A stretch of DNA of 64,000 nucleotides from Gammaproteobacteria bacterium (lineage in GTDB: Bacteria > Pseudomonadota > Gammaproteobacteria > CBDBNL01 > JAAOII01), in contig OZ244039.1 of the NCBI GenBank assembly GCA_965215225.1, forward strand, positions 1,725,353-1,789,352, read 5' to 3'. Both the position numbers and the translations under genes were made by a program. The notes beneath the pieces are model-generated. The model searched no databases and was not told the origin of the DNA. It worked only from the letters and a program-made list of their open reading frames with translations. This document shows, one piece after another, positions 18,149-50,900 of the stretch (within the stretch, counting starts at the first letter, position 1; every line of letters starts with the position of its first letter).

Positions 18149-18342
18149 CTTCCCTATCTCAAGTCCGCTGAAGTAATTTCTCTCATTGAGTAGTTTTGCT
18201 TATTTAGTATGTATAATAAATGGCATATATTTTGAATCCATAATGGCGCCTTAATAACGCTTCAATAGGCCTCCTGTTGTGAGATCTTGTGCCTAAGGTC
18301 TGGATTCAAGCTTAAAAATAAACCAATAGCCTCGACAAAATT
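18149..18342 (+). promoter_or_regulatory. conserved roughly 200-bp leader/promoter region of the ATPase cassette (copy 1); contains TTGAGT...TATAAT-like elements
   Basis: The same block (ctctcattgagtagttttgcttatt...tataat(g/a)aatgg...gaatccataatggcgccttaataacgcttcaatagg...ttcaagcttaaaaataaacc) precedes all three ATPase genes. Confidence 0.4.
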
Positions 18343-19458: not shown

Positions 19459-19487
19459 ATATAAGTATCCATATAAAAAATATAGCA

Positions 19488-20141: not shown

Positions 20142-20174
20142 AACTAGGCTGCCTCTAGCTGAAATCCGATAAGA

Positions 20175-20393
20175 GCCTCCCCTATCTCGAGTCAGCCGAA
20201 ACAATTTCTCTCATTGAGTAGTTTTTGCTTATTCATTAGGTATAATGAATAGATTCTCTCTCATAAGAGGGATGAATATATTTTGAATCCATAATAGCGC
20301 CTTAATAACGCTTCAATAGGTTTCGTGTTGTGAGATCTTGTGCCTAAGGTCTGGATTCAAGCTTAAAAATAAACCAATAGCCTCGACAAAATT
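20175..20393 (+). promoter_or_regulatory. conserved leader/promoter region of the ATPase cassette (copy 2), without an 8-bp array
   Basis: Same conserved block as 18149-18342. Confidence 0.4.
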
Positions 20394-21509: not shown

Positions 21510-21533
21510 ATATTGGTATATTATGTAAAAAAT

Positions 21534-22205: not shown

Positions 22206-22344
22206 AAACCAAGCTATCTCTAGCTGAAATCCATAGAGGCAATTCACTATATCTTTTCTATAGTTTTAAGTGCTAGAAACTGATGTATAACTTCAATTGG
22301 ACTGGTTTTTGGTGAAAGTGTGCCATCATTTTTGCTGGCGTGAG

Positions 22345-22615
22345 GGAGGGATGACATGATGAAGGATGAGGGATGAAAGATGAAAGATGAAAGATGAAAG
22401 ATGAAAGATGAAAGATGAAAGATGAAAGATGAAAGATGAAAGATGAGAGATGAGAGATGAGAGATGAGAGATGAAGGATGAAGGATGAAGGATGAGAGAT
22501 GAGGGATGACATGATGAAGAATGAGAGATGAAGGATGAAAGATGAAGGGTGAAAGGTGAAGAATGAAGAATGAAGGATGAGGGATGAGGGATGGAGGATG
22601 GAAGATGAAAGATAA
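22345..22615. repeat. 8-bp microsatellite array (GATGAAAG/GATGAGAG), upstream of ATPase copy 3
   Basis: gatgaaagatgaaagatgaaag... shows period 8. It is preceded by the same 60-bp block (ggactggtttttggtgaaagtg...ctggcgtgagggagggatg) as the array at 17870. Confidence 0.9.
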
Positions 22616-22847
22616 GAGACTTCTCTATCTCAAGTCCGTTGCAACAATTTCTCTCATTGAGTAGTTTTGCTTATTCATTAAGTATAATGAATGGCTTCTC
22701 TCTCATAAGAGGGATGAGTGTATTTTGAATCCATAATGATGCCTTAATACAATAACCAATAACGCTTCAATAGGCCTCTTATTGTGAGATGTAGCGTCTA
22801 TGGTTTGGGTTCAAGCTTAAAAATAAACCTATAACCTATACAAACTT
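22616..22847 (+). promoter_or_regulatory. conserved leader/promoter region of the ATPase cassette (copy 3)
   Basis: Same conserved block as at 18149 and 20175, but more diverged. Confidence 0.4.
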
Positions 22848-23951
22848 ATGTTAACACATTTTGAAGTCTCAAATTTCAAGCTTTTCAAAAAGCCCTTCAT
22901 TTTGAAATCCATCCCTCAGATTTTGCTAATTGGAGGGGAAAACAATAGTGGGAAAACTAGTATTTTGGAAGCCCTATTACTACCTTTCGATCAGTTAGAT
23001 TCGGGTATGTTCGTGAAGCATCTTCAATGGCGAGGATTAACCAATATTGAAGTGGAATCTTTATTTGAATTGATATATCACAACCTTGAATCGAATCAGC
23101 CTATTAAGTTTAAATATACCCTTAATGGAAAAAAGCAAGAGGTGACATATACATTTCACCAAGATGACTCCCCGCCTATTACAGAAACAGACGATGATAT
23201 CATTGATATTGGGAGAGAGATTCTTAGCTTATCCAGTGAAACTCAAAAGCTATACGACCGGATAGTTATTTCCTGTCTATCAAAGAACAAAGAAGTTTTT
23301 CAACTCCATCTAATGGACACCCAAGAGGGTATTTACCTAGATTTTGGCAAAAACACAAAAAAAGCTGTCGAATCGATAGCACAATTTAATCAAGATTTCT
23401 ATGTTAGTTTTATCAGTGCAACTCAACCCACATCTTCCAGAGGAAATGCCGAGAGGTTTGACCAGTTAGCAAGGGCAAGGAAAACTGAAAAGCTTCTTGA
23501 AGCCCTTCAAATTATGGAACCAAAGCTAAAATCTCTAAGCACCATTGAAATGGGGGAAGAACCGGTAATATATGGAGATATGGAGAGACTCAAGATTCCG
23601 TTGTCTTTGATGGGTGAGGGTATAAATCGTCTTATGTCCATTCTTCTATCCATTTCTTGCTCAGGAAATGGAATCACCTTAATAGATGAGTTGGAAAATG
23701 GATTCCACTATTCTCTTTTACCGAAGGTCATGAAAGTGATCGCAGAACATGCCCAGTCTAACAGGGCGCAGGTGATAGCCACCACATACAGTAGGGAACT
23801 GCTGCAGGCAACTGTGGAAAGCTTGCCTCAGGATTTACAAGATAAATTTCGCTATATGCGAATTGACAGAGATGGAGATGAGTTTAAAATAAGAAACTAT
23901 GATTTCAAAGTTTTAGCAACCTCCCTTGAAGCCAATTTCGAAACTCGCTGA
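22848..23951 (+). CDS. stand-alone ABC/AAA_21-type ATPase, copy 3 (diverged, about 70% identity; no partner gene downstream)
   Basis: Walker A GGENNSGKTSILEA, LLIDELENGFHYS and IATTYSRE (H-loop His replaced by Tyr). Confidence 0.7.
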   Translation: MLTHFEVSNFKLFKKPFILKSIPQILLIGGENNSGKTSILEALLLPFDQLDSGMFVKHLQWRGLTNIEVESLFELIYHNLESNQPIKFKYTLNGKKQEVTYTFHQDDSPPITETDDDIIDIGREILSLSSETQKLYDRIVISCLSKNKEVFQLHLMDTQEGIYLDFGKNTKKAVESIAQFNQDFYVSFISATQPTSSRGNAERFDQLARARKTEKLLEALQIMEPKLKSLSTIEMGEEPVIYGDMERLKIPLSLMGEGINRLMSILLSISCSGNGITLIDELENGFHYSLLPKVMKVIAEHAQSNRAQVIATTYSRELLQATVESLPQDLQDKFRYMRIDRDGDEFKIRNYDFKVLATSLEANFETR

Positions 23952-24039
23952 ATATCCCATCCATTCTCTTTCTTGATAAGCGCAATTAGTTAGAAGAACT
24001 ATTATTAATGCGTTTTTTAGTGCCCTGTTAGTGATGGCG

Positions 24040-24870
24040 CTAGCCGAGATCATGGGTGGAGGATATTAATGATAGATTTAGTAAGCTAGCAAGAAACTGG
24101 GAAAGAGCTCGGAGCTGGTGAGCTAGGAGGATGGGTGGGGGATATTAATGATAGCAAAAATAGGCTAGCGAGAAATTGGAAATAGCTCGGAGCTGGTGAG
24201 CTAGGATGATGGATGGGACATATTAATCATAGATTTAATAGGCTAGCAAGAAACTGGAAATGGGTCGGAGCTGGTGAGCTAGGATGATGGATGGGGGATA
24301 TTTAGGGGATATTAATGATAGATTTAATAGGCTAGAAAATAGGCTAGCAAGAAACTGGAAATGGGGCGGAGCTGGTGAGCTAGGAGGATGGATGGGAGAT
24401 ATTTAGGGGATATTAATGATAGCAAAAATAGGCTAGAAAATAATCTAGCAATAAATTAGAAATGGGGCGGAGCTGGTGAACTAGGAGGATGGATGGGGGA
24501 TATTTAGGGGATATTAATGATAGCTTTAATAGGCCAGCAATAAATTGGGAATAGCTCGGAGCTGGTGAGCTAGGAGGATGGATGGGGGATATTTAGGGGA
24601 TATTAATGATAGCTTTAATAGGCCAGCAAGAAACTGGGAATAGCTCGGAGCTGGTGAGCTAGGATGATGGATGGGGGATATTTAGGGGATATTAATGATA
24701 GCAAAAATAGGCTAGAAAATAAGCTAGCAATAAATTGGAAATGGGGCGGAGCTGGTGAGCTAGGAGGATGGATGGGGGATGGGAAATATTAATGATAGCA
24801 AAAATAGGCTAGTAAATAGGCTAGTAAGAAATTGGAAATGGGTCGGAGCTGATGAGCTAGGATGGAGGCA
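24040..24870. repeat. about 88-100-bp tandem repeat array (about 9 units: ...ggctagcaagaaactggaaatggggcggagctggtgagctaggaggatggatgggggatatttaggggatattaatgatag...)
   Basis: Visible periodic recurrence of gagctggtgagctagga and atattaatgatag. Confidence 0.85.
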
Positions 24871-32846: not shown

Positions 32847-34220
32847 CTAGCCTTGCAAACGAGCAATAAGAGGAGTCAAGACCCTATGGGCAGCCCCATT
32901 TGACATTAGCACCAGGGTATCTCCCTCTTTTGCCTTATCACCAAGATAATCAACCAGATCTTTCGCTTGATTAAATAACTGACTGTCCTTGCCTTTCAAC
33001 TGACGAATGGCTGAAACAGATTTGGCAGGGTTGGATAGAAACCATAAAACCTCATCTGCTTGATTGGCTGCTTCAATCAGGTCGCCATGTGTCCCCATCC
33101 TCATGCTGTGAGAAGCCAAATCCACTATAGCGCGCAGTTTCCCTTTTCTCTTGTATTCGGCAAGAGTAGTTATAGTAGCCTTAATAGAGGTAGGATGGTG
33201 GGCAAAATCACTAATGACCTCAATGCCATTAAACACACCCAGAGTCTGCAGCCTTCTTGCCACGCCGCTGAACTCAGCTGCCGCCAGTTTAATATTGGCT
33301 GGCGAGACTCCAATAGCATAGGCGGTAGCAGCTGCCGCCAAAAGATTAGTGGCATTATGCCTTCCCTTGAGCTGCCAGCTAATTTCTAGGTTCGAATCAG
33401 GTAGATGGATAGTAATTTTTTCTCTGCCCTCCTCCATCAGGTCCCTACTACAGAGAATCTCTCCTTGAGAATAGCCAGAAGAAGCCTCACCCTTATTTAG
33501 CATGACCAGTCTATGCTTGGTTGCCAAACAATCCATATCAATAACCTTCTCTAGCGAACTATTGGCAGAGATGAAAAAGACATCCCCTTTGGCTGGCACT
33601 GTCCGAAGCAGATGGCAAAATTGCTTCTCAACCGCCGCCAGATCCTCATAGATATCAGCGTGATCATATTCAAGGCTGGTAAGTATCAAGCAGTTAGGAC
33701 GATAGTGAATGAATTTAGCGCGCTTATCGAAGAAGGCAGAGTCATATTCATCGGCTTCAAGGACAAATTCGTCGCCTTTTCCTAAGTCGGCTGGCAGAGC
33801 AAAATCGCGCCCAGCACCAGCAATAAGATAGCCCGGCTCACGCCCATCCATGATCAAGAGTTTTGTCAATAAAGCGGTCGTGGTAGTCTTGCCATGAGTT
33901 CCTGCTACAGCTAATACTCTCCTGCCCTTTAGGACATTTTCAGCAAGCCATTGAGGCGCGGATATATAAGGACGATCCTCATTCAATAGCTGCTCTATGA
34001 TTGGCATCCCCCTTGTCATCACATTGCCGACTATATAGAGATCTGCATCGGGCAATTCATCATAGCCATTCAGACACTGAATAGCTTGAGTGGCAAGTAT
34101 CTCACTCATAGGAGGATAGCTATTGCTATCTGAGCCAGTCACCCTATGTCCTTGTTGGCGTGCCAACAAAGCAATACCAGTCATAAAGGTTCCGCCTATA
34201 CCCAAGAGGTGAAGATGCAC
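32847..34220 (-). CDS. mpl: UDP-N-acetylmuramate:L-alanyl-gamma-D-glutamyl-meso-diaminopimelate ligase
   Basis: Mur-ligase motifs (AVAGTHGKTTTTALL) are present. The N-terminus VHLHLLGIGGTFMTGIALLARQQGHRVTGSDSNSYPPMS aligns with E. coli Mpl from a GTG start at 34218-34220. The ORF-track ATG at 34394 would add 58 non-homologous residues. Confidence 0.8.
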   Translation of the reverse strand: MHLHLLGIGGTFMTGIALLARQQGHRVTGSDSNSYPPMSEILATQAIQCLNGYDELPDADLYIVGNVMTRGMPIIEQLLNEDRPYISAPQWLAENVLKGRRVLAVAGTHGKTTTTALLTKLLIMDGREPGYLIAGAGRDFALPADLGKGDEFVLEADEYDSAFFDKRAKFIHYRPNCLILTSLEYDHADIYEDLAAVEKQFCHLLRTVPAKGDVFFISANSSLEKVIDMDCLATKHRLVMLNKGEASSGYSQGEILCSRDLMEEGREKITIHLPDSNLEISWQLKGRHNATNLLAAAATAYAIGVSPANIKLAAAEFSGVARRLQTLGVFNGIEVISDFAHHPTSIKATITTLAEYKRKGKLRAIVDLASHSMRMGTHGDLIEAANQADEVLWFLSNPAKSVSAIRQLKGKDSQLFNQAKDLVDYLGDKAKEGDTLVLMSNGAAHRVLTPLIARLQG

Positions 34221-34224
34221 GAAA

Positions 34225-35214
34225 CTAAGGAATGAGGATAGTAGATGCGGTAGTCTTTCTCGCTGCCAGATCCTTATGTGCCCTGGCAACCTGGGCAAGA
34301 GGATATTCTTGATGAATAGATATTTCCAGTCCGGCGCGGCAAGCAGCAAAAAGACGGGCAGCGCTCTCGCGCCTTTCGCCCTCACTAGCAGCATAGTGCA
34401 TAAGGCTCGGGCGAGTCAAGAAGAGCGAACCCTTTTCCGCCAATAGACTTGGGGCAACCGGAGGCACTGGCCCTGAAGCATTGCCATAGGAAACCATCAT
34501 ACCGCGCGGCCTTAAGGCATCTAAGGACGACATAAATGTATCCTTGCCAATAGAATCATAAACCACATCCACTCCTTTTCCTTTGGTCAATTCTCTGACT
34601 TGCTTTGCCAGGTCCCCTTCACCGTGAATGATTACCTCATCACAACCATAGCTCCTAGCCAATTCAGCCTTTTCCTTTGTGCTAGCAGTTCCTATCACAA
34701 AGACCCCCAGTTGCTTTAACCATTGTAGCGCGATTAGACCCACCCCGCCAGCTATGGCGTGAAAGAGAACCAGATGGTCTCGCTTCACTCGAAAGGTTCG
34801 GTGGATAAGATATTCTGCTGTCATTCCCTTAAGCATCATAGCCGCCGCCTGCTTAGTGCTGATATGAGTTGGCAAGAGAATCAACTGCCCACTAGCTATA
34901 TGCCTCCTCTGACTATAAGAGCCTAGTGATGTGCAATAGGCTACCCTATCGCCTATATGAAAATCCCGAACCCTCTTGCCTACCTCCTCTACTATTCCAG
35001 CAGCCTCCATCCCCAAAACAGCCGGTAAATTAAGCGGATAAAGGCCGGTGCGATGATAGATGTCAATGAAATTAATTCCGACTGCCTCATGTCTGACGAC
35101 AACTTCTTCTTCTCCTAGCTCAGCAGCTAAGGGCGCATATTCCCACCTCAAGCAAGACTCATCGCCAGTCTGATAAAGGAAAATCGCCTTGTTCGATTTG
35201 TTCGCCTTGTTCAT
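34225..35214 (-). CDS. qor: NADPH:quinone oxidoreductase (zinc-type ADH/MDR superfamily)
   Basis: 329 aa with a GroES-like N-domain (VVVRHEAVGINFIDIY) and a Rossmann fold (LFHAIAGGVGLIALQWLKQLG). Confidence 0.8.
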   Translation of the reverse strand: MNKANKSNKAIFLYQTGDESCLRWEYAPLAAELGEEEVVVRHEAVGINFIDIYHRTGLYPLNLPAVLGMEAAGIVEEVGKRVRDFHIGDRVAYCTSLGSYSQRRHIASGQLILLPTHISTKQAAAMMLKGMTAEYLIHRTFRVKRDHLVLFHAIAGGVGLIALQWLKQLGVFVIGTASTKEKAELARSYGCDEVIIHGEGDLAKQVRELTKGKGVDVVYDSIGKDTFMSSLDALRPRGMMVSYGNASGPVPPVAPSLLAEKGSLFLTRPSLMHYAASEGERRESAARLFAACRAGLEISIHQEYPLAQVARAHKDLAARKTTASTILIP

Positions 35215-35575
35215 TTAATCTTAGCGGGTGAAGATGACCAAATGAAATTAACTACCTCTTCCACCGCCTCATGTCTGACGACAACCTCCTCTTCCTTTAG
35301 CTCAGCTGCTAAGGACGCATATTCCCACCTCAAGCAGGACTCATCGCCGGTCTGATGAAGAAAAATTGCCCTATTCATATTGTTCATCTAATCTTATCAG
35401 ATTGTTTGTTTAATCTTATCGGAGAAAGAAAGACCAAGTGTCTTCAACACTCCAACCAGTTCATCTAAAAAGTCAATGAAATTAACTACCACCTTCCACC
35501 GCCTCATGCCTAACACAAACTTCTTCCTCCCCCAGCTCAGCCAAAGGCGCGTCTTCCCATTGCATACAAGACTCA

Positions 35576-36244
35576 TCACCCGACCCCTGAGTAGACTTCC
35601 CACAGCGGGACGAGCCCAACGAGCAACGACCTGGTCCGGTCGAGGAAGGCCGGGGCGTCCGCCGCGACCTCGGCCGGTTCGCAGGTCCGCAGCGCACAGA
35701 GGTGCGGCCCCTCGAGGAAGCTCTCCGCTTTCGTCGCGTCGAGTTGGCGATCGATCTCGCCATACTTCTTGCAGGCGATCAAATCCGTCGAGGCGCCGAG
35801 CCCGACCTCCCGGCCGAGCGTCACGACGCGCGCGGCGTCGCGTCGAAGTGCCGCCGCCATCGGAGCGTCTTCGCTCAGCAGCGGGGGCGGTACATAGAGT
35901 CCGGCCCAGACCCCATCGGGCTGCAATCCGACGAAGAGCTGCGCGTCTTCCTTCTTCCGGCCTTCCCGGTAGAAGAGCGCCAGCATGTTGTTCTTGTAGG
36001 GGCTCTGCCCTCTTGCAAACCGCATGTCCCGATTGATCCGGGTGATGGTCCTGTTGACGTTCGGCCGGATCTCGCAATCGGGAATGTGCTCGCGCAGGGC
36101 CGGCCCGATATCGCCGACAGCGCTGCGCAAGGGACCAAGCAGGTTGCTCTCGTAGCGATCGCGGTTCGCCTCGAACCACGCTTTGTCGCGATGCGCGTTC
36201 AGATCGTCGAGAAAACGGAACGTCTCCGCCGAAAAATACTTCAT
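35576..36244 (-). CDS. DUF2461 (TIGR02453) family protein, on a high-GC horizontally acquired island
   Basis: 222 aa. The N-terminus FSAETFRFLDDLNAHRDKAWFEANRDRYE matches the DUF2461 signature (F.FL..L..NN...WF..N...Y). The local GC is about 66% against about 42% in the flanks. Confidence 0.7.
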   Translation of the reverse strand: MKYFSAETFRFLDDLNAHRDKAWFEANRDRYESNLLGPLRSAVGDIGPALREHIPDCEIRPNVNRTITRINRDMRFARGQSPYKNNMLALFYREGRKKEDAQLFVGLQPDGVWAGLYVPPPLLSEDAPMAAALRRDAARVVTLGREVGLGASTDLIACKKYGEIDRQLDATKAESFLEGPHLCALRTCEPAEVAADAPAFLDRTRSLLVGLVPLWEVYSGVG

Positions 36245-36387
36245 AGTGTCACCTCTTCCTTCGCCTTGTATTTGACGATAACTTCTTCTTCCCCCAACTC
36301 AGCCAAAGTCTCCTCCTTTTCCTCCCACTTCAAGCAAGTCTCATCGCCGGTCTGATAAAGGAAAATCGCCTTGTTCATCTTGTTCAT
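36241..36387 (-). CDS. 48-aa leader ORF derived from the qor N-terminus, translationally coupled to the DUF2461 gene (ATGA overlap)
   Basis: Minus-strand translation gives MNKMNKAIFLYQTGDETCLKWEEKEETLAELGEEEVIVKYKAKEEVTL-stop. Its TGA overlaps the ATG of the DUF2461 gene (ctATGAag). Confidence 0.4.
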   Translation of the reverse strand: MNKMNKAIFLYQTGDETCLKWEEKEETLAELGEEEVIVKYKAKEEVTL

Positions 36388-36849
36388 TTAATCTTATCAA
36401 GTTGTTTGTTTAATTTTATCGGAGAAAGAAAGGCCCAGTGTCTTCAACACTCCATCCAATTCATCCAAATAATCAATGAAATTAACTACCATCTTCCTTC
36501 GCCTCATGTTTGACGATAACTTCTTCTTCCCCCAGCTCAGCCAAAGGCTCCTCCCTCTCCTCCTCCCACTTCAAGCAGGACTCATCGCCGGTCTGATAAA
36601 GGAAAATCGCCTTATTCATATTGTTCATCTAATCTTATCAGGTTGTTTGTTTAATTTTATCGGAGAAAGAAAGACCCAGCGTCTTCAACACTCCATCCAA
36701 TTCTTCTTCTCCTAGCTCAGCAGCTAAGGGCGTATCCTCCCACTTCAAGCAAGTCTCATCGCCGGTCTGATGAAGGAAAACCGCCTTGTTCGATTTGTTC
36801 GCCTTGTTCGCCTTCGCCTTATTCACCTTATTCACCTTATTCATCCTGC

Positions 36850-37722
36850 TCATTTAATCTTATCGGGGGAAGAAAGACCCAGTGTCTTCAACACTCCATC
36901 CAGTTCATCTAAGGAGTTGTAATGAACTACCATCTTTCCTTTACCACTATGGGTATATTGAAACTTAACCTGCACCCCCAATTTGTCGCTAATATCTTCT
37001 TGAAGTGACAGAATATTGACATCCATTTGCCGCCGTTTGCGCGGCCCCTTATGAAAGCGAATAACCAGCTTCTCTGTTTGACGGACGGTTAGTCTCTTGT
37101 TAACAACTTCCTCAGCAGCCCTTATTTGTTCCTTGTCCTCAAGCCCCAATAGCACCTTAGCATGTCCTAGTTCCAATTTGCCAGCCTTAACCATTTCTCC
37201 TACTGGGTCTTCCAACCTTAACAAGCGAATAATATTTGCCACAGCCACGCGCGACATACCTACCATGTCCGCCAGCTGTTTCTGAGTATAGTTGTAATTA
37301 GAGCGTAAGGATTCAAAGGCTTCTGCTTGTTCATAAGCATTAAGGTCATCGCGCTGAACATTCTCAACCAGCGCCAGAACAGCAAGCGACCTGTCATCTA
37401 CTTCACGCACTACCGCAGGCATATGACTTAGACCCACCATTTTTGCCGCCCGCCACCTTCTTTCACCAGCAATCAGCTCATACTCACTTGCTGTCTCCTG
37501 CTTAGGGCGAACTACTATGGGTTGAAGGACTCCCTGTGTCTGAATAGAAGAAGCCAGTTCTCTTAATGAATCGGTTCTAAAGTCATTGCGAGGCTGATAA
37601 GGATTAGGATGAATCTCATTAAGGGAAAGCTCAATAAGACTCTTGTCTTCTACCTTCTCTACATTAATGTCTTCTAAGAGAGCAGACAGATCCTTTCCTA
37701 AGGCTTTTCTTTTCTTTGCCAT
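36850..37722 (-). CDS. parB: chromosome partitioning protein ParB
   Basis: ParB-box residues LIAGERRWRAAKMVGL are present, with an HTH, and parA lies upstream. Confidence 0.9.
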   Translation of the reverse strand: MAKKRKALGKDLSALLEDINVEKVEDKSLIELSLNEIHPNPYQPRNDFRTDSLRELASSIQTQGVLQPIVVRPKQETASEYELIAGERRWRAAKMVGLSHMPAVVREVDDRSLAVLALVENVQRDDLNAYEQAEAFESLRSNYNYTQKQLADMVGMSRVAVANIIRLLRLEDPVGEMVKAGKLELGHAKVLLGLEDKEQIRAAEEVVNKRLTVRQTEKLVIRFHKGPRKRRQMDVNILSLQEDISDKLGVQVKFQYTHSGKGKMVVHYNSLDELDGVLKTLGLSSPDKIK

Positions 37723-37724
37723 AA

Positions 37725-38525
37725 TTATCTTTCCTCATGACGACGGACAAATTCTCCTGCCAGAGCCAAATAGGTAATCGCACCAACCGACCTTCTATCA
37801 TAGCTAACTGCAGGAAGCCCATGGCTGGGTGCTTCCGCCAAGCGCACATTGCGCGGAATAATAACATTGTATACCTCAGAGGCAAAAGATTGAAGTAATT
37901 GATGAGAAACTTCGCGCGCTAACCGATTTCTTTTATCATACATGGTGCGCAATATGCCTTCAAATTCAAGCTTTGAATTAATAGTGGCCTTCACTCCTTC
38001 AACGGTTCTCATTAGTTCGGTCAGGCCGCGCAAAGCAAAATATTCACATTGGATTGGAACAAGAATACTATCGGCGGCGCCCATACTATTGATAGTCAAT
38101 ATATTCAATGATGGGGGGCAATCTATCATTATGTAATTATAGTCAGTTCTTAAAGAAGCCAAAGCACTACGAAGCGCGAAGGGTCTTCTTTTGCCAGTAA
38201 TGAGCTCTATCTCAGCTGCGGTGAGGTCGCGATTAGAAGGCAATAGGTCATATAGGGCGGGTGTGTCAGGCACTATGGCCTGGGTTGGTTTTTTCTTCTT
38301 CATCAGAACATCATAGATGGTCACCGTCCCCATCTTCTTCTCTATGCCGCTGCCGACAGTAGCATTTGCTTGTGGGTCCATATCCACAACCAATACCTTG
38401 CGATTAATTGCCACCAGCCCAGCCGCCAAGTTAATACAGGTTGTTGTCTTTGCCACTCCACCTTTTTGATTGGTAATGGCAACTATATGAGCCTGATGAG
38501 CCGGCTGCTTCAGCTTTTTTGCCAT
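37725..38525 (-). CDS. parA: chromosome partitioning ATPase ParA/Soj
   Basis: Deviant Walker A: IVAITNQKGGVAKTTTCINLA. Confidence 0.9.
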   Translation of the reverse strand: MAKKLKQPAHQAHIVAITNQKGGVAKTTTCINLAAGLVAINRKVLVVDMDPQANATVGSGIEKKMGTVTIYDVLMKKKKPTQAIVPDTPALYDLLPSNRDLTAAEIELITGKRRPFALRSALASLRTDYNYIMIDCPPSLNILTINSMGAADSILVPIQCEYFALRGLTELMRTVEGVKATINSKLEFEGILRTMYDKRNRLAREVSHQLLQSFASEVYNVIIPRNVRLAEAPSHGLPAVSYDRRSVGAITYLALAGEFVRRHEER

Positions 38526-39187
38526 ACCAATACCGAGAGCTTCATTGATTCTTCATTTGCTTTCAAAGGAGGAATAGTTATTTTGTTGATAGTCATTGTC
38601 TGCCAGGGTTCAACTAGGTCGTTCAGTTCAGTTTGGCGAACCTTCCCTTTCATTGCCAATAGCCTGCCACTTCTTTTTAGCAGAGGCCAAGCAAGACGAC
38701 ACAAGACAAGGCAGCTGCCAAGGGCGCGGGCTGTTATTGTTTGAAAGCTGTTCTTCTCCTTAGCATCCTGAGCTAGGTCCTCTGCCCGTTTGTGGACTAT
38801 CCTCAGATTAGACAGTTCCAGCTCGCTTTTAACTCTTAATAGAAAAGATGCCTTTTTGTTGTTCTTCTCTATCAGGGTCCAACTATTCTCGCGCGCCATT
38901 AAAGCAAGTGGAATGGCAGGCAGGCCTGCCCCACTTCCTATATCGGCTAATTGGCTAGGAGCGGAAGGCAGAAAAGAGAACAGGCTGAAACTATCCATAA
39001 TATGCCGCCTCACCCAATCAGATGGTGGAATTGAAGTAAGGCCAACCAGCTTGTTCCACTCTGCCATTAGGTTGAGATAGAGCCACAATTGGTCAATCAG
39101 ATCAACAGCTGGCGGCAATCCCATCAGCTCCACTGCCTTTATCAACTCCCCCTTTGTCCCCTTAGCTAAGCGCATTTGCCAAGCCAT
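38510..39187 (-). CDS. rsmG: 16S rRNA (guanine527-N7)-methyltransferase RsmG (GidB)
   Basis: SAM-MTase motif DIGSGAGLPAIPLAL, 225 aa, in the conserved rsmG-parA-parB arrangement. Confidence 0.85.
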   Translation of the reverse strand: MAWQMRLAKGTKGELIKAVELMGLPPAVDLIDQLWLYLNLMAEWNKLVGLTSIPPSDWVRRHIMDSFSLFSFLPSAPSQLADIGSGAGLPAIPLALMARENSWTLIEKNNKKASFLLRVKSELELSNLRIVHKRAEDLAQDAKEKNSFQTITARALGSCLVLCRLAWPLLKRSGRLLAMKGKVRQTELNDLVEPWQTMTINKITIPPLKANEESMKLSVLVWQKS

Positions 39188-42479: not shown

Positions 42480-42656
42480 TTCTTCTCTTTATTATAAAGA
42501 GAAAGGTTTGATTAATTCATTTATTCTAACTAATGAGCGTCTTTGAAGATTGAAATTGAGCGGCCAATCAAAATGAGTCATCTATTTTGAGGAGGGAAGC
42601 AGACTAGCCAAACGGGTTTATTTGGAGTGCCCCTGTCCTAGCCGTTTCGGTTGGAG

Positions 42657-44972
42657 CTAGGGAAACAGCTCGTCTAAACGGGTCTGATTTAGTTCGGGTT
42701 GTCCAGTGCTATTCAAATACCACCAGCTACGCCATTCGGCAGGAGCTATGGGAGTGCATTCAATAGCGGGATACTCATCCGACTCACCAAAATCCCAGAT
42801 AAGATTGGCATCGATGTCTTCACCAGTTTCAATGCTCCCACTATTATCCCTATCACACCAAACAGCTAATGGTTCGTCAATCATACTACCATCGTCAAAC
42901 ACAACTGGGTTCTCGTCCCATTTGACATAAATCCCTGTATAGGGAGTTGGCATCTGAAGTTGACTACTAGTCTTGGCTTCACCATGGTTGCCATCAGCAT
43001 GAGTGACGCCAGTAGCATTGTACCAATAGGAATTAACTCCAGCCCCACTTCCTTCCCCAACCAGCATACGAGTAATACTGCCTGAGACCACATAAGAATA
43101 AGCAACCTTGCTAGAAGAGTCAAATCTTCCCGCCAGACCACCTATCGGATTCAGCCCGCTCAACTCATCCACCACAACCGATGAAGAATAAATCTGAGCC
43201 GATGGACCCCACCCCACCAGACCGCCTATATAAAGACCATTAATCCCACTCACTTCACCCGCCACAACCGAAGATGAAAAAACACGAGCTGAAGCACCAA
43301 ACCCCACCAGACCGCCTATAACATTACCAACCCCTCCCACCGCACCTGCCACAACCGATGAAGAATGAATCAGGCTCCCTTCACCATTCCCTACCAGACC
43401 GCCTATATTACCAGCACCCCCAAACACCATACCCATCACAACCGATGAAGAATAAATCCGAGCGGATTGACCATGGCCCACCAGACCACCCACATTTTGA
43501 GCCCCGGACGTCTCACCCACCACAACTGAAGAAGAATAAATCCGAACGGATTGACCATGGCCCACCAGACTACCTATATGGCTGCCAATACCTCTCACCC
43601 TATCCACCACAACCGAAGCAGAATGAATCCGAGCCGATTCACCATCCCCTACCAAACCGCCTACCCTAATCCTACCTATCACTGCCTCGGCACTAAGAGT
43701 CAAATTACGAATCTCTGAATTATCAGCTATATGGCCAAACAAACCCACACAATCCTCACCTGAACGACTGATATTCAAATCACTAATCATAAAACCATTG
43801 CCTTCAAAGGTCCCACTAAAAGCAGTTCCTTGACATCCGGGACCACTAGCTGTATCATGACCCAAGGGTTGCCAGCCTTTGCCGCCATCGTCATCCGCAT
43901 AGTCCGCAAGACTTATATTCGCAACCAGCTCATAACCAGAACAAGAAGTGATGCCGTCGGCACCACCACAGCCAGTTTGGTCAAGGTTGCCACCCGCCAT
44001 GGAACGATAGCCGCTGCCATCCAGTTGATGACGGACCGCATTTAATTCCTCATGTGTTCTTATCTCTATCAACCCATCCCCATCATCATCTACATCCTCC
44101 ACCGCATCCTCACAACCATCGCCATCTTTGTCGTTGTCAGAGGTAGAGACAAAATTTGAATTTTGACTGGTAGGACATTGGTCTGAATCATCTCTTATAC
44201 CGTCATTATCGTCATCATCACTGGGACCACCTGTTCCCGGATCGCCATTCCCAGGATCAGGCGGGGGCTCCGGCTCCCCAGCTAACTTCTCATCTAAAAA
44301 GTCCGCTATGCCATTGCCATCTCCATCCTCCCCTATGGCTATCCGCCCACGAACCGAACCACCTGTCGTATCATTATAGTCCGCTAAATTCCTCTCTACC
44401 GGCCGCCACGCTATTCCCCTATCACCAACCCGAGCACCATCCGCCAGTGTCTCTTCATAGGAAAAAGTAAATTCATATTCCCTCCCCGACACAAGACCCC
44501 CAAAAATATAACCCGATATCAAATCCTCCAACGAAAGACCTGGACTCATCTCCTGTCCAGTAAGCTTCCCTTCCGCATCATAAGACCTGGCATTAATACG
44601 GACCGCCGTTATGTTCCTACCAGCATAGGCCGCCCCATTTGTCAAAGTAATACTAACCCCGCCATCAAAAGGACTGAACGCTAATACAAAGGGGTCGTCT
44701 TCCGAACTGTCACTCCCCGAACCACCGCCTGAACCTCCACCGCCGCCGCCAGCACAAGCAGTAAAAACAACTGATAAGAAACCCGCCGCAACTAAGAAGA
44801 AGAGAAACCGTCCCAGCCGACTAAGCGGAATCAAGGGGGTATGATCTAGGCACAAGGCCAGATAAGAGAAGTAGAAGCGGAACCTAGCCGCTCCGAATAA
44901 TAAAAATTGGGTTGCTTTTGCCAATTTTACATTTGCCATAATAATTCTTTTTGTCATTTTCATCTTCACCAT
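42657..44972 (-). CDS. surface lipoprotein with thrombospondin type-3 Ca-binding repeats and GLUG repeats (paralog 1, 771 aa)
   Basis: Lipobox (FLSVVFTAC), a poly-Gly/Ser linker, Asp-rich TSP3-like repeats (DDDDNDGIRDDSDQCP...DNDKDGDGCEDAVEDVDDDGDGL), about 10 GLUG units (GGLVG.G.SARI.SSSVV) and a conserved C-terminal domain (AVWCD.DNSGSIE...IWDFGESDEYPAI.CTP.AP..WR.WW). Confidence 0.75.
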   Translation of the reverse strand: MVKMKMTKRIIMANVKLAKATQFLLFGAARFRFYFSYLALCLDHTPLIPLSRLGRFLFFLVAAGFLSVVFTACAGGGGGGSGGGSGSDSSEDDPFVLAFSPFDGGVSITLTNGAAYAGRNITAVRINARSYDAEGKLTGQEMSPGLSLEDLISGYIFGGLVSGREYEFTFSYEETLADGARVGDRGIAWRPVERNLADYNDTTGGSVRGRIAIGEDGDGNGIADFLDEKLAGEPEPPPDPGNGDPGTGGPSDDDDNDGIRDDSDQCPTSQNSNFVSTSDNDKDGDGCEDAVEDVDDDGDGLIEIRTHEELNAVRHQLDGSGYRSMAGGNLDQTGCGGADGITSCSGYELVANISLADYADDDGGKGWQPLGHDTASGPGCQGTAFSGTFEGNGFMISDLNISRSGEDCVGLFGHIADNSEIRNLTLSAEAVIGRIRVGGLVGDGESARIHSASVVVDRVRGIGSHIGSLVGHGQSVRIYSSSVVVGETSGAQNVGGLVGHGQSARIYSSSVVMGMVFGGAGNIGGLVGNGEGSLIHSSSVVAGAVGGVGNVIGGLVGFGASARVFSSSVVAGEVSGINGLYIGGLVGWGPSAQIYSSSVVVDELSGLNPIGGLAGRFDSSSKVAYSYVVSGSITRMLVGEGSGAGVNSYWYNATGVTHADGNHGEAKTSSQLQMPTPYTGIYVKWDENPVVFDDGSMIDEPLAVWCDRDNSGSIETGEDIDANLIWDFGESDEYPAIECTPIAPAEWRSWWYLNSTGQPELNQTRLDELFP

Positions 44973-45334: not shown

Positions 45335-46990
45335 TGAGAAGGGAAGAAAAGAAGCAGATTAGCCAAAGGGGGCTAGTTGGAGTGGGCCTGTCCTAGCTGT
45401 TTGGGTTGAGGCTAGGGAAGCAGATTAACCAAAGGGGCTAGTTGGAGTGGGACTGTCCTAGCCGTTTCGGTTGAGGCTAGGGAAGCAGATTAGCCAAAGG
45501 GGGTTAGTTGGAGTGGGCCTGTCCTAGCTGTTTGGGTTGAGGCTAGGGAAGTAAATTAGCCAAAGGGGGCTGGTTGGAATGGGTCTGTCCTAGCCTTTTG
45601 GGTTGAGGCTAGGGAAGTAAATTAGCCAAAGGGGGCTGGTTGGAATGGGTCTGTCCTAGCTGTTTGGGTTGCAGCTAGGGAAGCAAATTAGCCAAAGGGG
45701 GCTAGTTGGAGTGGGTTTGTCCTAGCTGTTTGGGTTGAGGCTAGGGAAGCAAATTAGCCAAAGGGAGCTAGTTGGAGTGGGACTGTCCTAGCCGTTTCGG
45801 TTGAGGCTAGGGAAGTAAATTAGCCAAAGGGGGCTGGTTGGAGTGGGTCTGTCCTAGCCTTTTGGGTTGAGGCTAGGGAAGTAAATTAGCCAAAGGGGGC
45901 TGGTTGGAATGGGTCTGTCCTAGCCTTTTGGGTTGAGGCTAGGGAAGTAAATTAGCCAAAGGGGGCTGGTTGGAATGGGTCTGTCCTAGCTGTTTGGGTT
46001 GAGGCTAGGGAAGCAGATTAGCCAAAGGGGGCTAGTTGGAGTGGGCCTGTCCTAGCCGTTTCGGTTGAGGCTAGGGAAGCAAATTAACCAAAGGGGGCTA
46101 GTTGGAGTGGGACTGTCCTAGCCGTTTCGGTTGAGGCTAGGGAAGCAGATTAACCAAAGGGGGCTAGTTGGAGTGGGACTGTCCTAGCTGTTTGGGTTGA
46201 GGCTAGGGAAGCAAATTAGCCAAAGGAAGCTAGTTGGAGTGGGACTGTCCTAGCTGTTTGGGTTGCAGCTAGGGAAGCAGATTAACCAAAGGGGGCTAGT
46301 TGGAGTGGGCCTGTCCTAGCTGTTTGGGTTGAGGCTAGGAAAGCAAATTAGCCAAAGGGGGCTAGTTGGAGTGGGTCTGTCCTAGCCGTTTGGGTTGAGG
46401 CTAGGAAAGCAGATTAACCAAAGGGGGTTAGTTGGAGTGGGCCTGTCCTGGCCGTTTCGGTTGAGGCTAGGGAAGCAGATTAGCCAAAGGGGTCTAGTTG
46501 GAGTGGGTCTGTCCTAGCTGTTTGGGTTGAGGCTAGGGAAGTAAATTAGCCAAAGGGGGCTAGTTGGAGTGGGACTGTCCTAGCTGTTTGGGTTGAGGCT
46601 AGGGAAGCAAATTAGCCAAAGGGGGCTAGTTGGAGTGGGCCTGTCCTAGCTGTTTGAGTTGAGGCTAGGGAAGCAGATTAGCCAAAGGGGGCTAGTTGGA
46701 GTGGGCCTGTCCTAGCTGTTTGAGTTGAGGCTAGGGAAGCAAATTAACCAAAGGGGGCTAGTTGGAGTGGGCCTGTCCTAGCTGTTTGGGTTGCAGCTAG
46801 GGAAGCAAATTAGCCAAAGGGGGTTAGTTGGAGTGGGTCTGTCCTAGCCGTTTCGGTTGAGGCTAGGGAAGCAAATTAACCAAAGGGGGCTAGTTGGAGT
46901 GGGTCTGTCCTAGCTGTTTGGGTTGAAGCTAGGGAAGCAGACTAGCCAAACGGGTTTATTTGGAGTGCCCCTGTCCTAGCCGTTTCGGTT
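45335..46990. repeat. 66-bp tandem repeat array (about 25 units; consensus GGCTAGGGAAGCAGATTAGCCAAAGGGGGCTAGTTGGAGTGGGCCTGTCCTAGCTGTTTGGGTTGA)
   Basis: Visible periodicity. Each unit has inverted elements gctaggg/cctagc and derives from the 3'-terminal coding sequence of the adjacent GLUG gene. Confidence 0.9.
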
Positions 46991-46994
46991 GGAG

Positions 46995-48929
46995 CTATTG
47001 AAGCAGATCGTCCAAACGAGCCCGGTCTAGTTCGGGTTTGCCACTCGCATTCAAAGACCACCAATCACGCCAATCGTCAGGAGCTAGCGGAGTGCAGCGA
47101 ATGGCGGGATATTGACTTGAAGTGCCGAAGTTCCAGATGAGATTGCCAGGGGTTTGTTCATCTGACTCTATGCTCCCACTGTTATCTTCATCACACCAGA
47201 CCGCCAATGGCACGTTCCCATCACCAAACAGATCTGTGTTATCGTCCCAAGTGGCATAAATATCTGTATAGTTAGTTGGACTGCGGAGATCGCTAGTGGT
47301 CTTGGCTTCACCATGATTGCCATTAGTGACGCCACTAGTATCACTGTCCCAATAGGAAGCAACTCCAGTCCCACTTCCTTGCCCAACCAGCGGCATAGTA
47401 GCACTGCCTGAGACCATGTAAGAATAAGCAACCCGACCAGCAGCAAAATCTCCCACCAGACCACCCGTAGGAATACCCCCTCTCACCTCACCCACCACAA
47501 CCGAAGAAGAATGAATTCGAGCACCTAGACCAGCCCCCACCAGACCACCTGTACTACTCTGTCCACTCACCTGAGCCGCTATAGCCGAAGAAGAAAAAAT
47601 GCTAGCATTTTGACCAAATCCTACCAGTCCGCCTGAATAAATACCAGCTACATCTGACGCTCTCACCTCAGCTGCCACAACCGAAGAAGAATAAATTCGA
47701 GCATTTGAACCATCCCCCACCAGACCACCTATAGTACTACTCCCGCTCACCTCAGCTGCCACCACCGAAGAAGAAACAATCCGAGCCGAGTTACCATCCC
47801 CCACCAGACCACCTACCCCAAACTTACCTATCACTGCCTCGGCACGAAGAATCAAATTGCGAATGGTTGCACCAGGGGCAAGATGCCCAAATAAACCCAC
47901 ACAATCTTCACCTGAACGACTAATGCTCAAATTGCTAATCATAAAACCATTGCCTTCAAAGGTCCCACTAAAAGCAGTTCCTTGACATCCTCTGGCAACT
48001 CTATCTGTATCTTGACCCAAGGGCTGCCAGCCTTTGCCGCTATCATAATCCACATAGTCTGCCAGACTTATATTATCAACCAGCTCATAACCAGAACAAG
48101 AAGTGATGCCGCCGGTACCACCACAGCCAGTGGTGTCGGCCGCCCCAGTATCCAATAGCTTGCGCCCGCTACCATCCAGTTGATGACGCACCGCATTTAA
48201 TTCCTCATGTGTTCTTATCTCTATCAACCCATCCCCATCATCATCTACATCAACATCATCTAGATAGGCATCATTATCATCATTATCATCTACACTATCC
48301 GCTCGCCTATCTCCATCCGTATCCAGCCCCGACCGAATACCGTCCCCGGCGTGATCATCATGATTCTCAGGCCAAACAAAAACTATATTCACCTCCTGCT
48401 CCCTGCTATCGCTAAGAATCCCAGTAATCTGAAACTTCCAATCTCGGTCAGCTAGCCCAGTAAAATCATAGCTGTCATTAGCAAATTCGTCTATGTTGAT
48501 ACTTCTCTCTACAACCTCGCTTCCACTAGTTGCCGTAATCTTCAAAGAAGTGAAACTGCTAAAGTCCGATTGGCTGCCTATTTGAAACCCACCCCTTATA
48601 GGAGCAAAAGTGAGACTCGCGTTAAAAACTCCCAGAACCATCGCGCCGTTTCCTGGACCATTGCCATCCATCGAACTATTGTTTACCGGACCACCATCAC
48701 CCGAACTGCCACCACCCCCGCCGCCAGCACAAGCAGTAAGAACAACTGATAAGAAACCAGCCGCAACTAAGAAGAAGAGGAACCGTCCCAGCCTACTAAG
48801 CAGAGTCAGGGGGGCATGATAAGAGAAATAGAAGCAGAACCTAGCCGCTCCGAATAATAAGAATTGGGTTGCTTTTGCCATTTTTATATTTGCCATAATA
48901 GTTCCTTTTACCATTTTTACATTCTCCAT
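46995..48929 (-). CDS. surface lipoprotein with TSP3-like and GLUG repeats (paralog 2, 644 aa)
   Basis: Same N-terminal region, lipobox LTAC and conserved C-terminal domain as paralog 1, with a different central region. It has Asp-rich DDNDDNDAYLDDVDVDDDGDGL and GLUG units. Confidence 0.75.
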   Translation of the reverse strand: MENVKMVKGTIMANIKMAKATQFLLFGAARFCFYFSYHAPLTLLSRLGRFLFFLVAAGFLSVVLTACAGGGGGGSSGDGGPVNNSSMDGNGPGNGAMVLGVFNASLTFAPIRGGFQIGSQSDFSSFTSLKITATSGSEVVERSINIDEFANDSYDFTGLADRDWKFQITGILSDSREQEVNIVFVWPENHDDHAGDGIRSGLDTDGDRRADSVDDNDDNDAYLDDVDVDDDGDGLIEIRTHEELNAVRHQLDGSGRKLLDTGAADTTGCGGTGGITSCSGYELVDNISLADYVDYDSGKGWQPLGQDTDRVARGCQGTAFSGTFEGNGFMISNLSISRSGEDCVGLFGHLAPGATIRNLILRAEAVIGKFGVGGLVGDGNSARIVSSSVVAAEVSGSSTIGGLVGDGSNARIYSSSVVAAEVRASDVAGIYSGGLVGFGQNASIFSSSAIAAQVSGQSSTGGLVGAGLGARIHSSSVVVGEVRGGIPTGGLVGDFAAGRVAYSYMVSGSATMPLVGQGSGTGVASYWDSDTSGVTNGNHGEAKTTSDLRSPTNYTDIYATWDDNTDLFGDGNVPLAVWCDEDNSGSIESDEQTPGNLIWNFGTSSQYPAIRCTPLAPDDWRDWWSLNASGKPELDRARLDDLLQ

Positions 48930-49319: not shown

Positions 49320-50900
49320 AAAAGAAGCAGATTAGCCAAAGGGGGCTAGTTGGAGTGGGTCTGTCCTAGCTGTTTGGGTTGAAGCTAGGGAAGCAAATTA
49401 GCCAAAGGGGGCTAGTTGGAGTGGGCCTGTCCTAGCTGTTTGGGTTGAGGCTAGGGAAGCAGATTAACCAAAGGGGCTAGTTGGAGTGGGACTGTCCTAG
49501 CCGTTTCGGTTGAGGCTAGGGAAGCAGATTAGCCAAAGGGGGTTAGTTGGAGTGGGTCTGTCCTAGCTGTTTGGGTTGCAGCTAGGGAAGCAGATTAACC
49601 AAAGGGGGCTAGTTGAAGTGGGCATGTCCTAGCTGTTTGGGTTGAAGCTAGGGAAGCAAATTAACCAAAGGGGGCTAGTTGGAGTGGGTCTGTCCTAGCC
49701 TTTTGGGTTGAGGCTAGGGAAGTAAATTAGCCAAAGGGGGCTAGTTGGAGTGGGTCTGTCCTAGCTGTTTGGGTTGCAGCTAGGGAAGCAAATTAGCCAA
49801 AGGGGGCTAGTTGGAGTGGGTCTGTCCTAGCTGTTTGGGTTGCAGCTAGGGAAGCAGATTAGCCAAAGGGGGCTGGTTGGAGTGGGTCTGTCCTAGCCGT
49901 TTGGGTTGCAGCTAGGGAAGCAAATTAGCCAAAGGGAGCTAGTTGGGGTGGGGCTGTCCTAGCTGTTTGGGTTGCAGCTAGGGAAGCAAATTAGCCAAAG
50001 GGGGCTAGTTGGAGTGGGCCTGTCCTAGCTGTTTGGGTTGAGGCTAGGGAAGCAAATTAGCCAAAGGGGGCTAGTTGAAGTGGGCATGTCCTAGCTGTTT
50101 GGGTTGAAGCTAGGGAAGCAAATTAACCAAAGGGGGCTAGTTGGAGTGGGCCTGTCCTAGCTGTTTCGGTTGAAGTTGAGGGTCTCAGCCAAAGCAAGTT
50201 GTCAGTTTGAGAAGGGAAGAAAAGAAGCAGACTAGCCAAAGGGGGCTAGTTGGAGTGGGTCTGTCCTAGCTGTTTGGGTTGCAGCTAGGGAAGCAAATTA
50301 GCCAAAGGGGGCTAGTTGGAGTGGGACTGTCCTAGCCGTTTCGGTTGAGGCTAGGGAAGCAGATTAGCCAAAGGGGGCTAGTTGGAGTGGGTCTGTCCTA
50401 GCTGTTTGGGTTGAAGCTAGGGAAGCAAATTAGCCAAAGGGGGCTAGTTGGAGTGGGTCTGTCCTAGCTGTTTGGGTTGCAGCTAGGGAAGTAAATTAAC
50501 CAAAGGGGGTTAGTTGGAGTGGGCCTGTCCTAGGTGTTTAGGTTGAGGCTAGGGAAGCGAATTAGCCAAAGGGAGCTAGTTGGAGTGAGTCTGTCCTAGC
50601 TGTTTGGGTTGAGGCTAGGGAAGCAAATTAACCAAAGGGGGTTAGTTGGAGTGGGCCTGTCCTAGCTGTTTGGGTTGAAGTTGAGGGTCTAAGTCGAAGC
50701 AAGTTGTCAGTTTGAGAAGGGAAGAAAAGAAGCAGACTAGCCAAAGGGGGCTAGTTGGAGTGGGTCTGTCCTAGCTGTTTCGGTTGAAGTTGAGGGTCTA
50801 AGCCAAAGCAAGTTGTCAGTTTGAGAAGGGAAGAAAAGAAGCAGACTAGCCAAATGGGGCTAGTTGGAGTGGGTCTGTCCTAGCCGTTTGGGTTGAGGCT
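49320..50900. repeat. 66-bp tandem repeat array, second copy (about 24 units in 3-4 sub-arrays)
   Basis: Same unit as 45335-46990. Sub-array boundaries are marked by gttgtcagtttgagaagggaagaaaagaagcag. Confidence 0.9.

Follow-up and report, generated by a model that had tools for sequence, protein, structure and literature searches.

A tandem array of parB–qor junction duplications and the foreign gene within it in a gammaproteobacterial genome

Introduction

What occupies the interval between parB and qor in this gammaproteobacterium, and how did it come to be there? The question arises from a 64,000-nucleotide stretch of contig OZ244039.1 (positions 1,725,353–1,789,352; hereafter the window, the whole stretch of DNA analyzed), whose minus strand carries, in order, rsmG (38510–39187), parA (37725–38525), parB (36850–37722), the flagged interval (35215–36849), qor (34225–35214) and mpl. 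A sequence-only reading of the same letters had taken the whole of this ~1.6 kb for repeats, the junction between the 3' end of parB and the 5' end of qor amplified in tandem into chimeric units, and had asked whether the copies of the ParB C-terminal peptide encoded there are expressed. The junction amplification at the core of that reading stands, while its extension to the entire interval and the importance given to the peptide copies do not. We consider it probable that sub-genic duplications of the parB stop and qor start built up a tandem array here, by now fixed and in slow decay, which later captured a foreign gene.

Anatomy of the array

The interval was searched by BLAST with 126 nt from the 3' end of parB and 218 nt from the 5' end of qor. 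Five extra qor heads (36809–36698, 36626–36501, 36385–36273, 35580–35494 and 35385–35259) and four extra parB tails (36707–36650, 36499–36409, 35495–35409 and 35234–35211) were found, with 77–92% identity to the parent genes and E-values of 1e-5 to 1e-42. These copies compose five chimeric units, each a qor 5' head followed by a parB 3' tail and all arranged head-to-tail, in the order expected of a duplicated segment comprising a parB tail and a qor head. Tandem Repeats Finder (TRF) assigns the array a 241-bp period at 91% identity, and in a repeat search the qor-head core turns up six times in register and the parB tail four times. The BLAST copies, TRF period and repeat search thus agree on a tandem amplification of the junction, and the repetition is far beyond chance. 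Both parents are intact at the ends of the array: parB encodes 290 residues with three ParB domains (Pfam ParB_N, HTH_ParB and ParB_C), and qor encodes 329 residues of the NADPH:quinone reductase family with two ADH domains (ADH_N, ADH_zinc_N), its score of 331 bits against NF008024 falling under the 348-bit cut-off.

The repeats account for ~58% of the interval, and the remaining 42% (35574–36264, 691 bp) is non-repeated and holds a foreign DUF2461 gene that the claim of repeats throughout had overlooked. As that reading had also proposed, the units keep a start codon and coding potential; their open reading frames (ORFs) encode 36–71 residues, and the example it quoted at 36638–36853 (71 aa), in which the qor head runs into a parB tail, proved exact. 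The units are unequal in length and composition, and not all are joined in the same way.

All five lie on the minus strand. Unit A, nearest parB, contains ORF m1 (71 aa, 36638–36853), in which a qor head (36853–36698) continues in frame into a parB tail (36707–36638) across the fusion point GAAGAA/TTGGATGG. Deletion has shortened this unit from the 241-bp type to 174 bp, and its two parts are 92% and 90% identical to qor and parB, respectively. At its 5' end a 9-bp repeat, AAYAAGGYG (coding for N-K-A/V/S), has expanded (36785–36843, TRF period 9). Unit B (36397–36628) is of the full 241-bp type, with a head at 36628–36501 (m2, 48 aa) and a tail at 36499–36397 (m3, 36 aa) that are out of frame with one another because of an 8-nt longer parB-derived patch (GAAGGAAGATGGTAGTT) ahead of the qor-derived AATTTCATTGA. 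Unit C retains only a qor head (m4, 48 aa, 36265–36387), the rest being truncated by the foreign insert. On the far side of the insert, unit D (m5, 59 aa, 35397–35580) joins a 5'-truncated head lacking its first 51 nt (35580–35494) to a parB tail (35495–35397); m5 begins in a TGATGA at the DUF2461 stop and is also called as a 59-aa gene in a second strain (L010, described below). In unit E (m6, 58 aa, 35211–35387) a qor head leads into a parB tail from which an internal stretch has been deleted. In three units the stop/start core contains a micro-duplication of 22 bp, GATAAAATTAAACAAACAAC-TGATAAGATTARATG.

Together these ORFs form a chain. The TGA stop of parB overlaps the ATG of m1 (ATGA), 9 nt separate m1 from m2, m2 and m3 overlap by 26 nt, and 9 nt lead from m3 to m4, whose stop overlaps the DUF2461 ATG in a further ATGA; from DUF2461 the chain passes through the TGATGA to m5, across 9 nt to m6, and by an ATGA shared between the m6 stop and the start of the genuine qor into that gene. 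The ORFs tile the array in this way because the stop/start core belongs to the duplicated segment.

One annotation caveat concerns the far side of qor, where the longest mpl ORF (32847–34394) would overlap qor by 170 nt (34225–34394); mpl is 445 aa long in relatives, so its true start is probably near 34184.

A foreign gene within the array

The non-repeated segment (35574–36264, minus strand) comprises 20 nt of upstream sequence and a complete DUF2461 ORF (35576–36244, 222 aa) matched by both Pfam DUF2461 and TIGR02453, and its homologs of 222–223 aa indicate that it is full length. Its GC content over the 691 bp is 64%, against a window average of 45%, with a jump from ~44% to 64–68% on passing from the adjoining sequence into the segment. 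Over exactly 691 nt (36264–35574) it is 97.1% identical to locus L007 and 97.25% identical to locus L012, the latter a 68%-GC locus on a 5.05-Mb contig of sample ERZ25070786, so that a donor-type genome and a recipient strain (L013, see below) share one sample. Beyond both joints the donor flanks are unrelated to the window, and homology stops abruptly.

Both joints can be read. Upstream (36254–36264), GCGAAGGAAGA is an 11-nt stretch common to the donor and to the chimeric head-to-tail joint of the array; it includes the Shine-Dalgarno region in the donor and occurs in neither native parB nor native qor. Downstream (35574–35581), GGGTGATG matches the qor-head motif GG(C/T)GATGAG and has the donor stop codon inside it, giving a microhomology GG(G)TGATG of 7–8 nt, or of 4–6 nt if the recipient had GGCGATG as other units do. 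Between these points the insert took the place of a single parB tail together with the initial 51 nt of the qor head that followed, and the 20 nt ahead of its start codon brought along the strong Shine-Dalgarno sequence of the donor, GGAAGAGGTGA. When the changes in the insert were polarized with four donor-side sequences, 16 substitutions proved to be derived in the recipient lineage, 15 of them GC→AT; within the ORF four are non-synonymous (Q2K, A142T, R167Q, A206S) and 11 synonymous. This pattern reads as amelioration toward the AT bias of the host under purifying selection, and the gene is interpreted as having come from a bacterium of the 68%-GC type by double illegitimate recombination, without a recombinase. 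The horizontal transfer inside the array is previously unreported. As for what the gene might do, PADLOC places DUF2461 in no defense family, and mention of this domain was limited to a single passing reference in each of four papers.

Duplicated gene ends around a single foreign ORF also bring to mind att-site duplications and cassette arrays, and the locus could be viewed as a set of scars of site-specific recombination, left by integration and decay of a mobile element or by integron-like cassettes at the parB/qor boundary. This explanation is barely credible. No integrase or transposase lies within ~10 kb, the neighbors being hisD, hisC, rsmG, parA, parB, qor, mpl and sdh, and neither intI nor any other recombinase appears among the called genes and Pfam matches within ±5–8 kb in the related loci L003, L010 and L013. 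The repeat search found zero pairs of inverted repeats in 34200–37800, attC-like palindromes are likewise missing from the interval, and no tRNA gene is nearby. The presence of both gene ends, head-to-tail, in each unit is the signature of tandem duplication, and the foreign segment ends at microhomologies set in donor chromosomal context instead of at a recombination site. Two specific candidates of this kind were rejected: an integron cassette array, given no integrase, no attC inverted repeats (34200–37800) and no fold signal, and an att-site duplication by an integrative element, given that the only tRNA gene of the window is at 7679–7763, that there is no integrase, and that each repeat carries both gene ends.

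A further copy of the DUF2461 gene, 87–89% identical, was seen at positions 4945–5669 of L008 (ERZ19489004 contig_1, 1.36 Mb), where it stands out at 63% GC within another genome whose GC content is 45–55%. It adjoins an IS3-family transposase, with a near-consensus parS-like TTCACGTGAAAC just upstream, and the gene may have been transferred more than once.

The array in other strains

The window ParB (P0250) and DUF2461 (P0265) proteins are both encoded on a 2,317,988-bp NCBI/ENA contig. The exact DUF2461 protein is found again on L010 (ERZ25070776, contig_12, 1,806,920 bp), and a two-residue variant on L013 (ERZ25070786, ctg147362l, 48.7 kb); the names and sizes of such contigs suggest long-read assemblies. 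Both are colinear with the window across the entire array and insert. Neighboring genes are 95.5–96.2% (hisC), 96.2–96.3% (parB) and 95.4–98.4% (qor) identical, and since the flanks thus differ by ~1–5%, the three are different strains. Within the array they are distinguished by a few substitutions, two indels of 3 bp and one unit of the 9-bp repeat.

These data bear on the possibility that the array is an artefact, in which a single junction was wrongly expanded, or a GC-rich part mis-joined, during assembly. Assemblies typically go wrong at repeats and at abrupt changes in GC content, a Logan contig built from short reads of a sister lineage (L004) ends inside the repeat, and donor-type and recipient genomes co-occur in one sample. 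Yet the locus is colinear in three assemblies (2.32 Mb, 1.8 Mb and 48.7 kb) with flanks 2–5% different, the units are 8–23% diverged from each other and are not the identical copies that would be expanded or collapsed, and a chimera with donor reads is excluded because the insert bears its own recipient-lineage substitutions, 16 in number and almost all GC→AT. With two further independent assemblies of different strains carrying the array, an artefact, which the sequence-only reading had attached to its proposal as a caveat, is ruled out for practical purposes.

Diversity among the three strains is conspicuously low over this segment. Array and insert contain 10 segregating sites in 1626 columns, compared with 69.5 expected (Poisson P = 5e-19) from a flanking density of 4.28 segregating sites per 100 bp, and no non-overlapping segment of the same size has fewer than 42. 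The flanks themselves alternate between zero-difference and high-difference blocks, as in a recombination mosaic. Such a trough would fit a recent spread of the segment by homologous recombination, i.e., a sweep; it would also fit the mosaic nature of the flanks, in that an import from an array-less lineage could take the place of the array only by removing it. A gene-specific sweep, at first preferred, was downgraded in view of the long blocks without differences in these mosaic flanks.

Relatives and the origin of the duplication

Related loci were found by a ParB search followed by contig look-up, yielding L003, L004, L005 and L006. The nearest named ParB matches are metagenome-assembled genomes at 56–57% identity, and ParB scans of genome and metagenome contigs returned distant, irrelevant matches only. 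Looking up the exact ParB and Qor proteins of the window gave no recorded match. In L005 (ParB 86% identical) and L006 (72%), parB and qor share a single ATGA overlap with nothing between them. L003 (ParB 91% identical, JGI 3300007064), to whose lineage the broken-off contig L004 belongs, has exactly one extra unit, decayed and broken by an in-frame TAG and a frameshift, whose joint GTTAATTTCATT|AATTTTTCAGGTGAA aligns with that of window units B and D. The comparison with related genomes, also suggested earlier, thus recovers states of zero (L005, L006), one (L003) and five units (L010, L013), and the number rises in successively closer relatives.

The novel joint, qor GTTAATTTCATTGA | parB TTTAGATGAA, is present in units B and D and in the L003 unit, and absent from L005 and L006; the microhomology at this founder joint is short and imperfect (AGTT.ATT / CATT). 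Judging from these alignments, the founder event would be a duplication of ~170–180 bp, from about codon 268 of parB to about codon 48 of qor, and it is probably older than the divergence between the L003 lineage and that of the window.

Later exchange has left its own traces. The window heads are nearer to the qor of the window itself than to that of L003, and two classes can be told apart among them, LAEL (units B, C and D, as in L010 qor) and LAAEL (units A and E, as in window and L013 qor), which are the two allelic forms of the genuine qor head in different strains. This correspondence suggests gene conversion or exchange between the pseudo-units and live qor. The 9-bp repeat is represented by three copies in the genuine qor, one in L003 and none in L005, and its number varies by strain, the window differing from L010 and L013 by an indel at 36835–36843. 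Separately, nowhere in the 9.7-kb strain alignment is polymorphism higher than in the qor 5' head (35000–35200), with 7–12 segregating sites per 100 bp.

Expression and the mini-ORFs

No promoter-like or terminator-like sites were found on the minus strand within the array, and counts are at chance level; on the plus strand there is one hit of each kind, again at chance level. Co-transcription of the array with parAB is the default assumption because no promoter or terminator signal interrupts its own strand. The Shine-Dalgarno sequence of qor (TAAGAT) is weak, and in the ancestral state the ATGA coupled this gene to parB. The mini-ORFs may be translated in passing, by coupling, and would be by-products of the duplicated stop/start core that are not needed as proteins. 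Two other uses for the array were considered and rejected: a cluster of ParB-binding parS sites, the palindrome TGTTNCACGTGAAACA having no match in the window with up to three mismatches allowed, and a structured RNA family, there being no Rfam match at E <= 1 in 35100–36950 and no fold signal for the unit against shuffled sequence (z = 0.13).

A more purposeful role can be imagined, in which the array is a selected translational relay or expression platform, its chain of short ORFs carrying ribosomes from parB to DUF2461 and on to qor, array and cargo having then swept. The tiling of the ORFs, a qor nearly devoid of its own Shine-Dalgarno sequence, the two substitutions by the DUF2461 start (CCATGC to CTATGA) that made the ATGA overlap with m4, and a diversity trough extending over exactly the array and insert all point in this direction. 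Against this, tiling arises automatically when the stop/start core is what is duplicated, the start of m3 lies 26 nt upstream of the m2 stop and breaks a simple relay, DUF2461 has a strong Shine-Dalgarno sequence of its own, and its two start-proximal changes are GC→AT like the rest. The trough can also be explained by array-less imports unable to recombine across the array in a mosaic background. Taken together, these observations make a selected relay unlikely.

It is also conceivable that the mini-ORFs are functional small proteins, and that ParB C-terminal peptides bind the dimerization domain and tune assembly of the partition complex. The peptide DGVLKTLGLSFSDKIK is nearly identical in three units, with differences that are mostly synonymous, and the starts of the mini-ORFs are placed like the native qor start. 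Nonetheless, the parB-tail copies hold only 15–32 residues of the 50-residue ParB_C dimerization domain, unit B is frameshifted, unit E is without the conserved core, and the L003 unit has its in-frame stop and frameshift. No family match was obtained for m1 (Pfam and NCBIfam) or for m5 and m6 (NCBIfam only), and a search with the consensus chimeric unit among 5.8 billion proteins recovered mini-ORFs from the three assemblies only, leaving no homologs outside this species-level lineage. The counts of ~4 synonymous versus 3 non-synonymous differences in 16 codons are too few for significance, and part of this divergence arose in functional parent genes. A protein-level function is therefore highly improbable, and the meaning that had been sought in the ParB C-terminal copies finds no family or fold signal to sustain it.

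A proposed history of the locus

The sequence of events may be pictured as follows. In the ancestral state, kept by two relatives, parB and qor would have overlapped by ATGA. A tandem duplication with ends in the last ~25 codons of parB and near qor codon 48 would then have created a new joint, in frame, at the short imperfect microhomology between qor and parB, and such a boundary-spanning duplication would be tolerated because both genes stay intact. The sister lineage appears to preserve this step, in its single, decayed unit joined at the same place. Along the line leading to the window, the unit would have gained the parB-derived patch and the 22-bp stop/start micro-duplication before being amplified to five units, presumably by unequal homologous exchange, and individual units would subsequently have been trimmed by deletions between GA(A/T)GAA repeats and by 9-bp and 3-bp slippage. 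Into this array a 691-bp piece of a 68%-GC bacterium would have entered by double illegitimate recombination, exchanging one parB tail and the beginning of the next qor head for itself at joints of 11 nt and ~7–8 nt. DUF2461 could have been expressed at once because it landed within the presumed parA-parB-qor transcription unit, the array showing neither promoter nor terminator signals, and it would since have drifted toward the AT bias of the host while being kept by purifying selection.

Several observations weigh against this account. Recurrent duplication at the same weakly similar site (AGTTCATTA versus AGTTAATTTCATT) is possible, and the parB-derived patch of the window units is not in L003, so that a shared single founder is plausible and not proven. 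The weak microhomology at the founder joint does not tell slippage, template switch or unequal exchange apart. The number of units is the same (five) in the window, L010 and L013, only the 9-bp and 3-bp indels varying; copy-number variation between strains is expected of active amplifications and is not a defining property of old, fixed arrays. The diversity trough fits a recent sweep as well as it fits neutral junk in a clonal frame. Finally, the parB-tail peptide is well conserved among units and the ORFs tile the array almost without gaps, so that selection acting on translation or on the peptide retains some scope.

Comparison with known systems and significance

The underlying processes of tandem duplication, chimera formation by partial duplication, and integration at microhomologies are known. 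The closest parallel to the array is tandem duplication-amplification in Salmonella and E. coli, as studied by Roth, Andersson and colleagues, which shares with it head-to-tail copies, a novel joint at a short homology, intact parents at both ends and a single-copy ancestral state in relatives. Laboratory duplications usually span kb to hundreds of kb, are unstable and are lost without selection, whereas the parB-qor unit is a sub-genic 174–241 bp and its array is fixed in at least three strains and old, judging by a copy divergence of 8–23%. Duplications with short direct homologous repeats at their endpoints were confirmed by Sun et al. 2012 (PMC3411829), and the microhomology of the founder joint is weaker than the >10 bp at those confirmed junctions. 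Partial duplications can also make chimeric ORFs, a subject reviewed by Katju 2012 (PMC3449122), where breakpoints in two neighboring genes leave a head-of-B::tail-of-A ORF between intact parents, as is the case here. The chimeric-gene literature is mostly eukaryotic and concerned with whole new genes, while the present locus offers 36–71-residue fragments, amplified five-fold and bearing no sign of function.

For the foreign gene, several precedents may be compared. Double illegitimate recombination has reportedly been described in Acinetobacter baylyi by Hülter and Wackernagel in 2008. SPDIR, or short-patch double illegitimate recombination, in the same organism integrates foreign DNA at microhomologies (Liljegren et al., bioRxiv 10.1101/2023.11.22.568220), and the insertion resembles it in having microhomology at both ends, no homologous anchor or recombinase, and a short resident segment replaced. 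SPDIR patches are short microindels, whereas here 691 bp and an entire gene were integrated under natural conditions, and the sample also contains a genome of the donor type that is 97% identical. Promoterless foreign genes have been seen to gain a promoter by microhomology-mediated deletion or amplification (Li & Bock 2019, PMC6614815), which likewise places a foreign gene behind a resident promoter through a microhomology-based rearrangement; in that system activation follows integration, while in the present one integration itself put the gene into an operon, within a dispensable repeat. An integron cassette array, too, presents a foreign promoterless ORF between repeats and downstream of a resident promoter. 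Here, by contrast, intI, attI and attC are all missing, the repeats derive from pieces of the genes on either side, and microhomologies form the joints, making the analogy functional at most.

What sets the locus apart is an unusually clear record of a short boundary-spanning duplication arising, being remodelled, and taking in a foreign gene. Of the two, the captured gene is of greater use, as a natural transfer of a single ORF with both microhomology joints readable, since clean transfers of this kind by illegitimate recombination into a core operon are rare outside the laboratory. There is also a lesson for annotation, in that the six mini-ORFs between parB and qor are gene fragments, and one for assembly, the array being a real feature of the genome on which short-read assemblies will break.

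A bolder conjecture, and a rather unlikely one, is that junction-duplication arrays act as gene-capture pads independent of any recombinase, and that this pad with its DUF2461 cargo then swept through co-existing strains. Were it true, such arrays would provide a dispensable, transcribed and translationally coupled filler in which foreign ORFs land by microhomology and are expressed at once, and the sweep of pad and cargo would explain the diversity trough. If it were moreover general in genomes rich in tandem repeats, it would amount to an unrecognized way for single genes to enter core operons by horizontal transfer.

Genome context

The window is rich in tandem arrays, which marks the genome as duplication-prone. 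The parB-qor array is one product of a propensity for short tandem duplications across the genome, whose copies survive where genes stay unbroken.

A second junction amplification was observed at 56463–57062, where a 150-bp unit is repeated four times at 98–99% identity. The unit spans the 5' ends of a Pyr_redox_2 gene (55433–56521, minus strand) and a divergent asparaginase gene (57048–58064, plus strand), covering the first ~20 codons of the former and the first five of the latter, and its copies yield chimeric mini-ORFs such as MMIKKKIVLLGGGHTHALVLQILAIFLS and MARICNTSAWVWPPP. This array is much younger than that between parB and qor.

Other repeats of the window are of diverse kinds. Arrays of a 66-bp unit at 45351–47005 (~25 copies) and 49324–50896 (~20 copies, of which 49324–50680 is called as a tandem array), at 90–92% identity, separate three paralogous large minus-strand ORFs without Pfam match (42657–44972, 46995–48929 and 50899–53061), and a single copy of the same unit lies at 42587–42668. 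A 13-bp repeat, TCTTTATTCCGCC, is present in ~99 copies at 77% identity over 8014–9287 and is followed by a 45-bp array of 3.7 copies; this region (8014–9443) has the minus-strand tRNA gene at 7679–7763 just upstream, shows a strong negative GC and AT skew, and contains long overlapping ORFs in several frames with no Pfam match.

Between 18225 and 23955 a two-gene module, encoding an AAA_15/AAA_21 ATPase and a DUF3226 / OLD-like TOPRIM protein, is tandemly triplicated, copies 1 and 2 being 94% identical and copy 3 ~82%, in the part of the window with the lowest GC content (37%). From its domains the module looks like an amplified ATPase-nuclease pair of the defense type. GATGA-rich microsatellites of 7 and 21 bp flank it (17909–18145 and 22358–22613), and arrays with periods of 7, 21 and 78–190 bp are spread around 17900–24860, among them a complex nested tandem repeat at 24048–24862 (periods 78, 89, 101 and 190 bp) that is apparently non-coding. 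A 1.26-kb dispersed direct repeat (6079–7330 and 13202–14465, 95.7% identity) carries a gene for a 314-aa NMT1-like substrate-binding protein; it was considered as an insertion sequence and rejected, being a gene duplicate. Lastly, an inverted repeat of 77–160 nt is found at 1914–2063 and 5881–6040.

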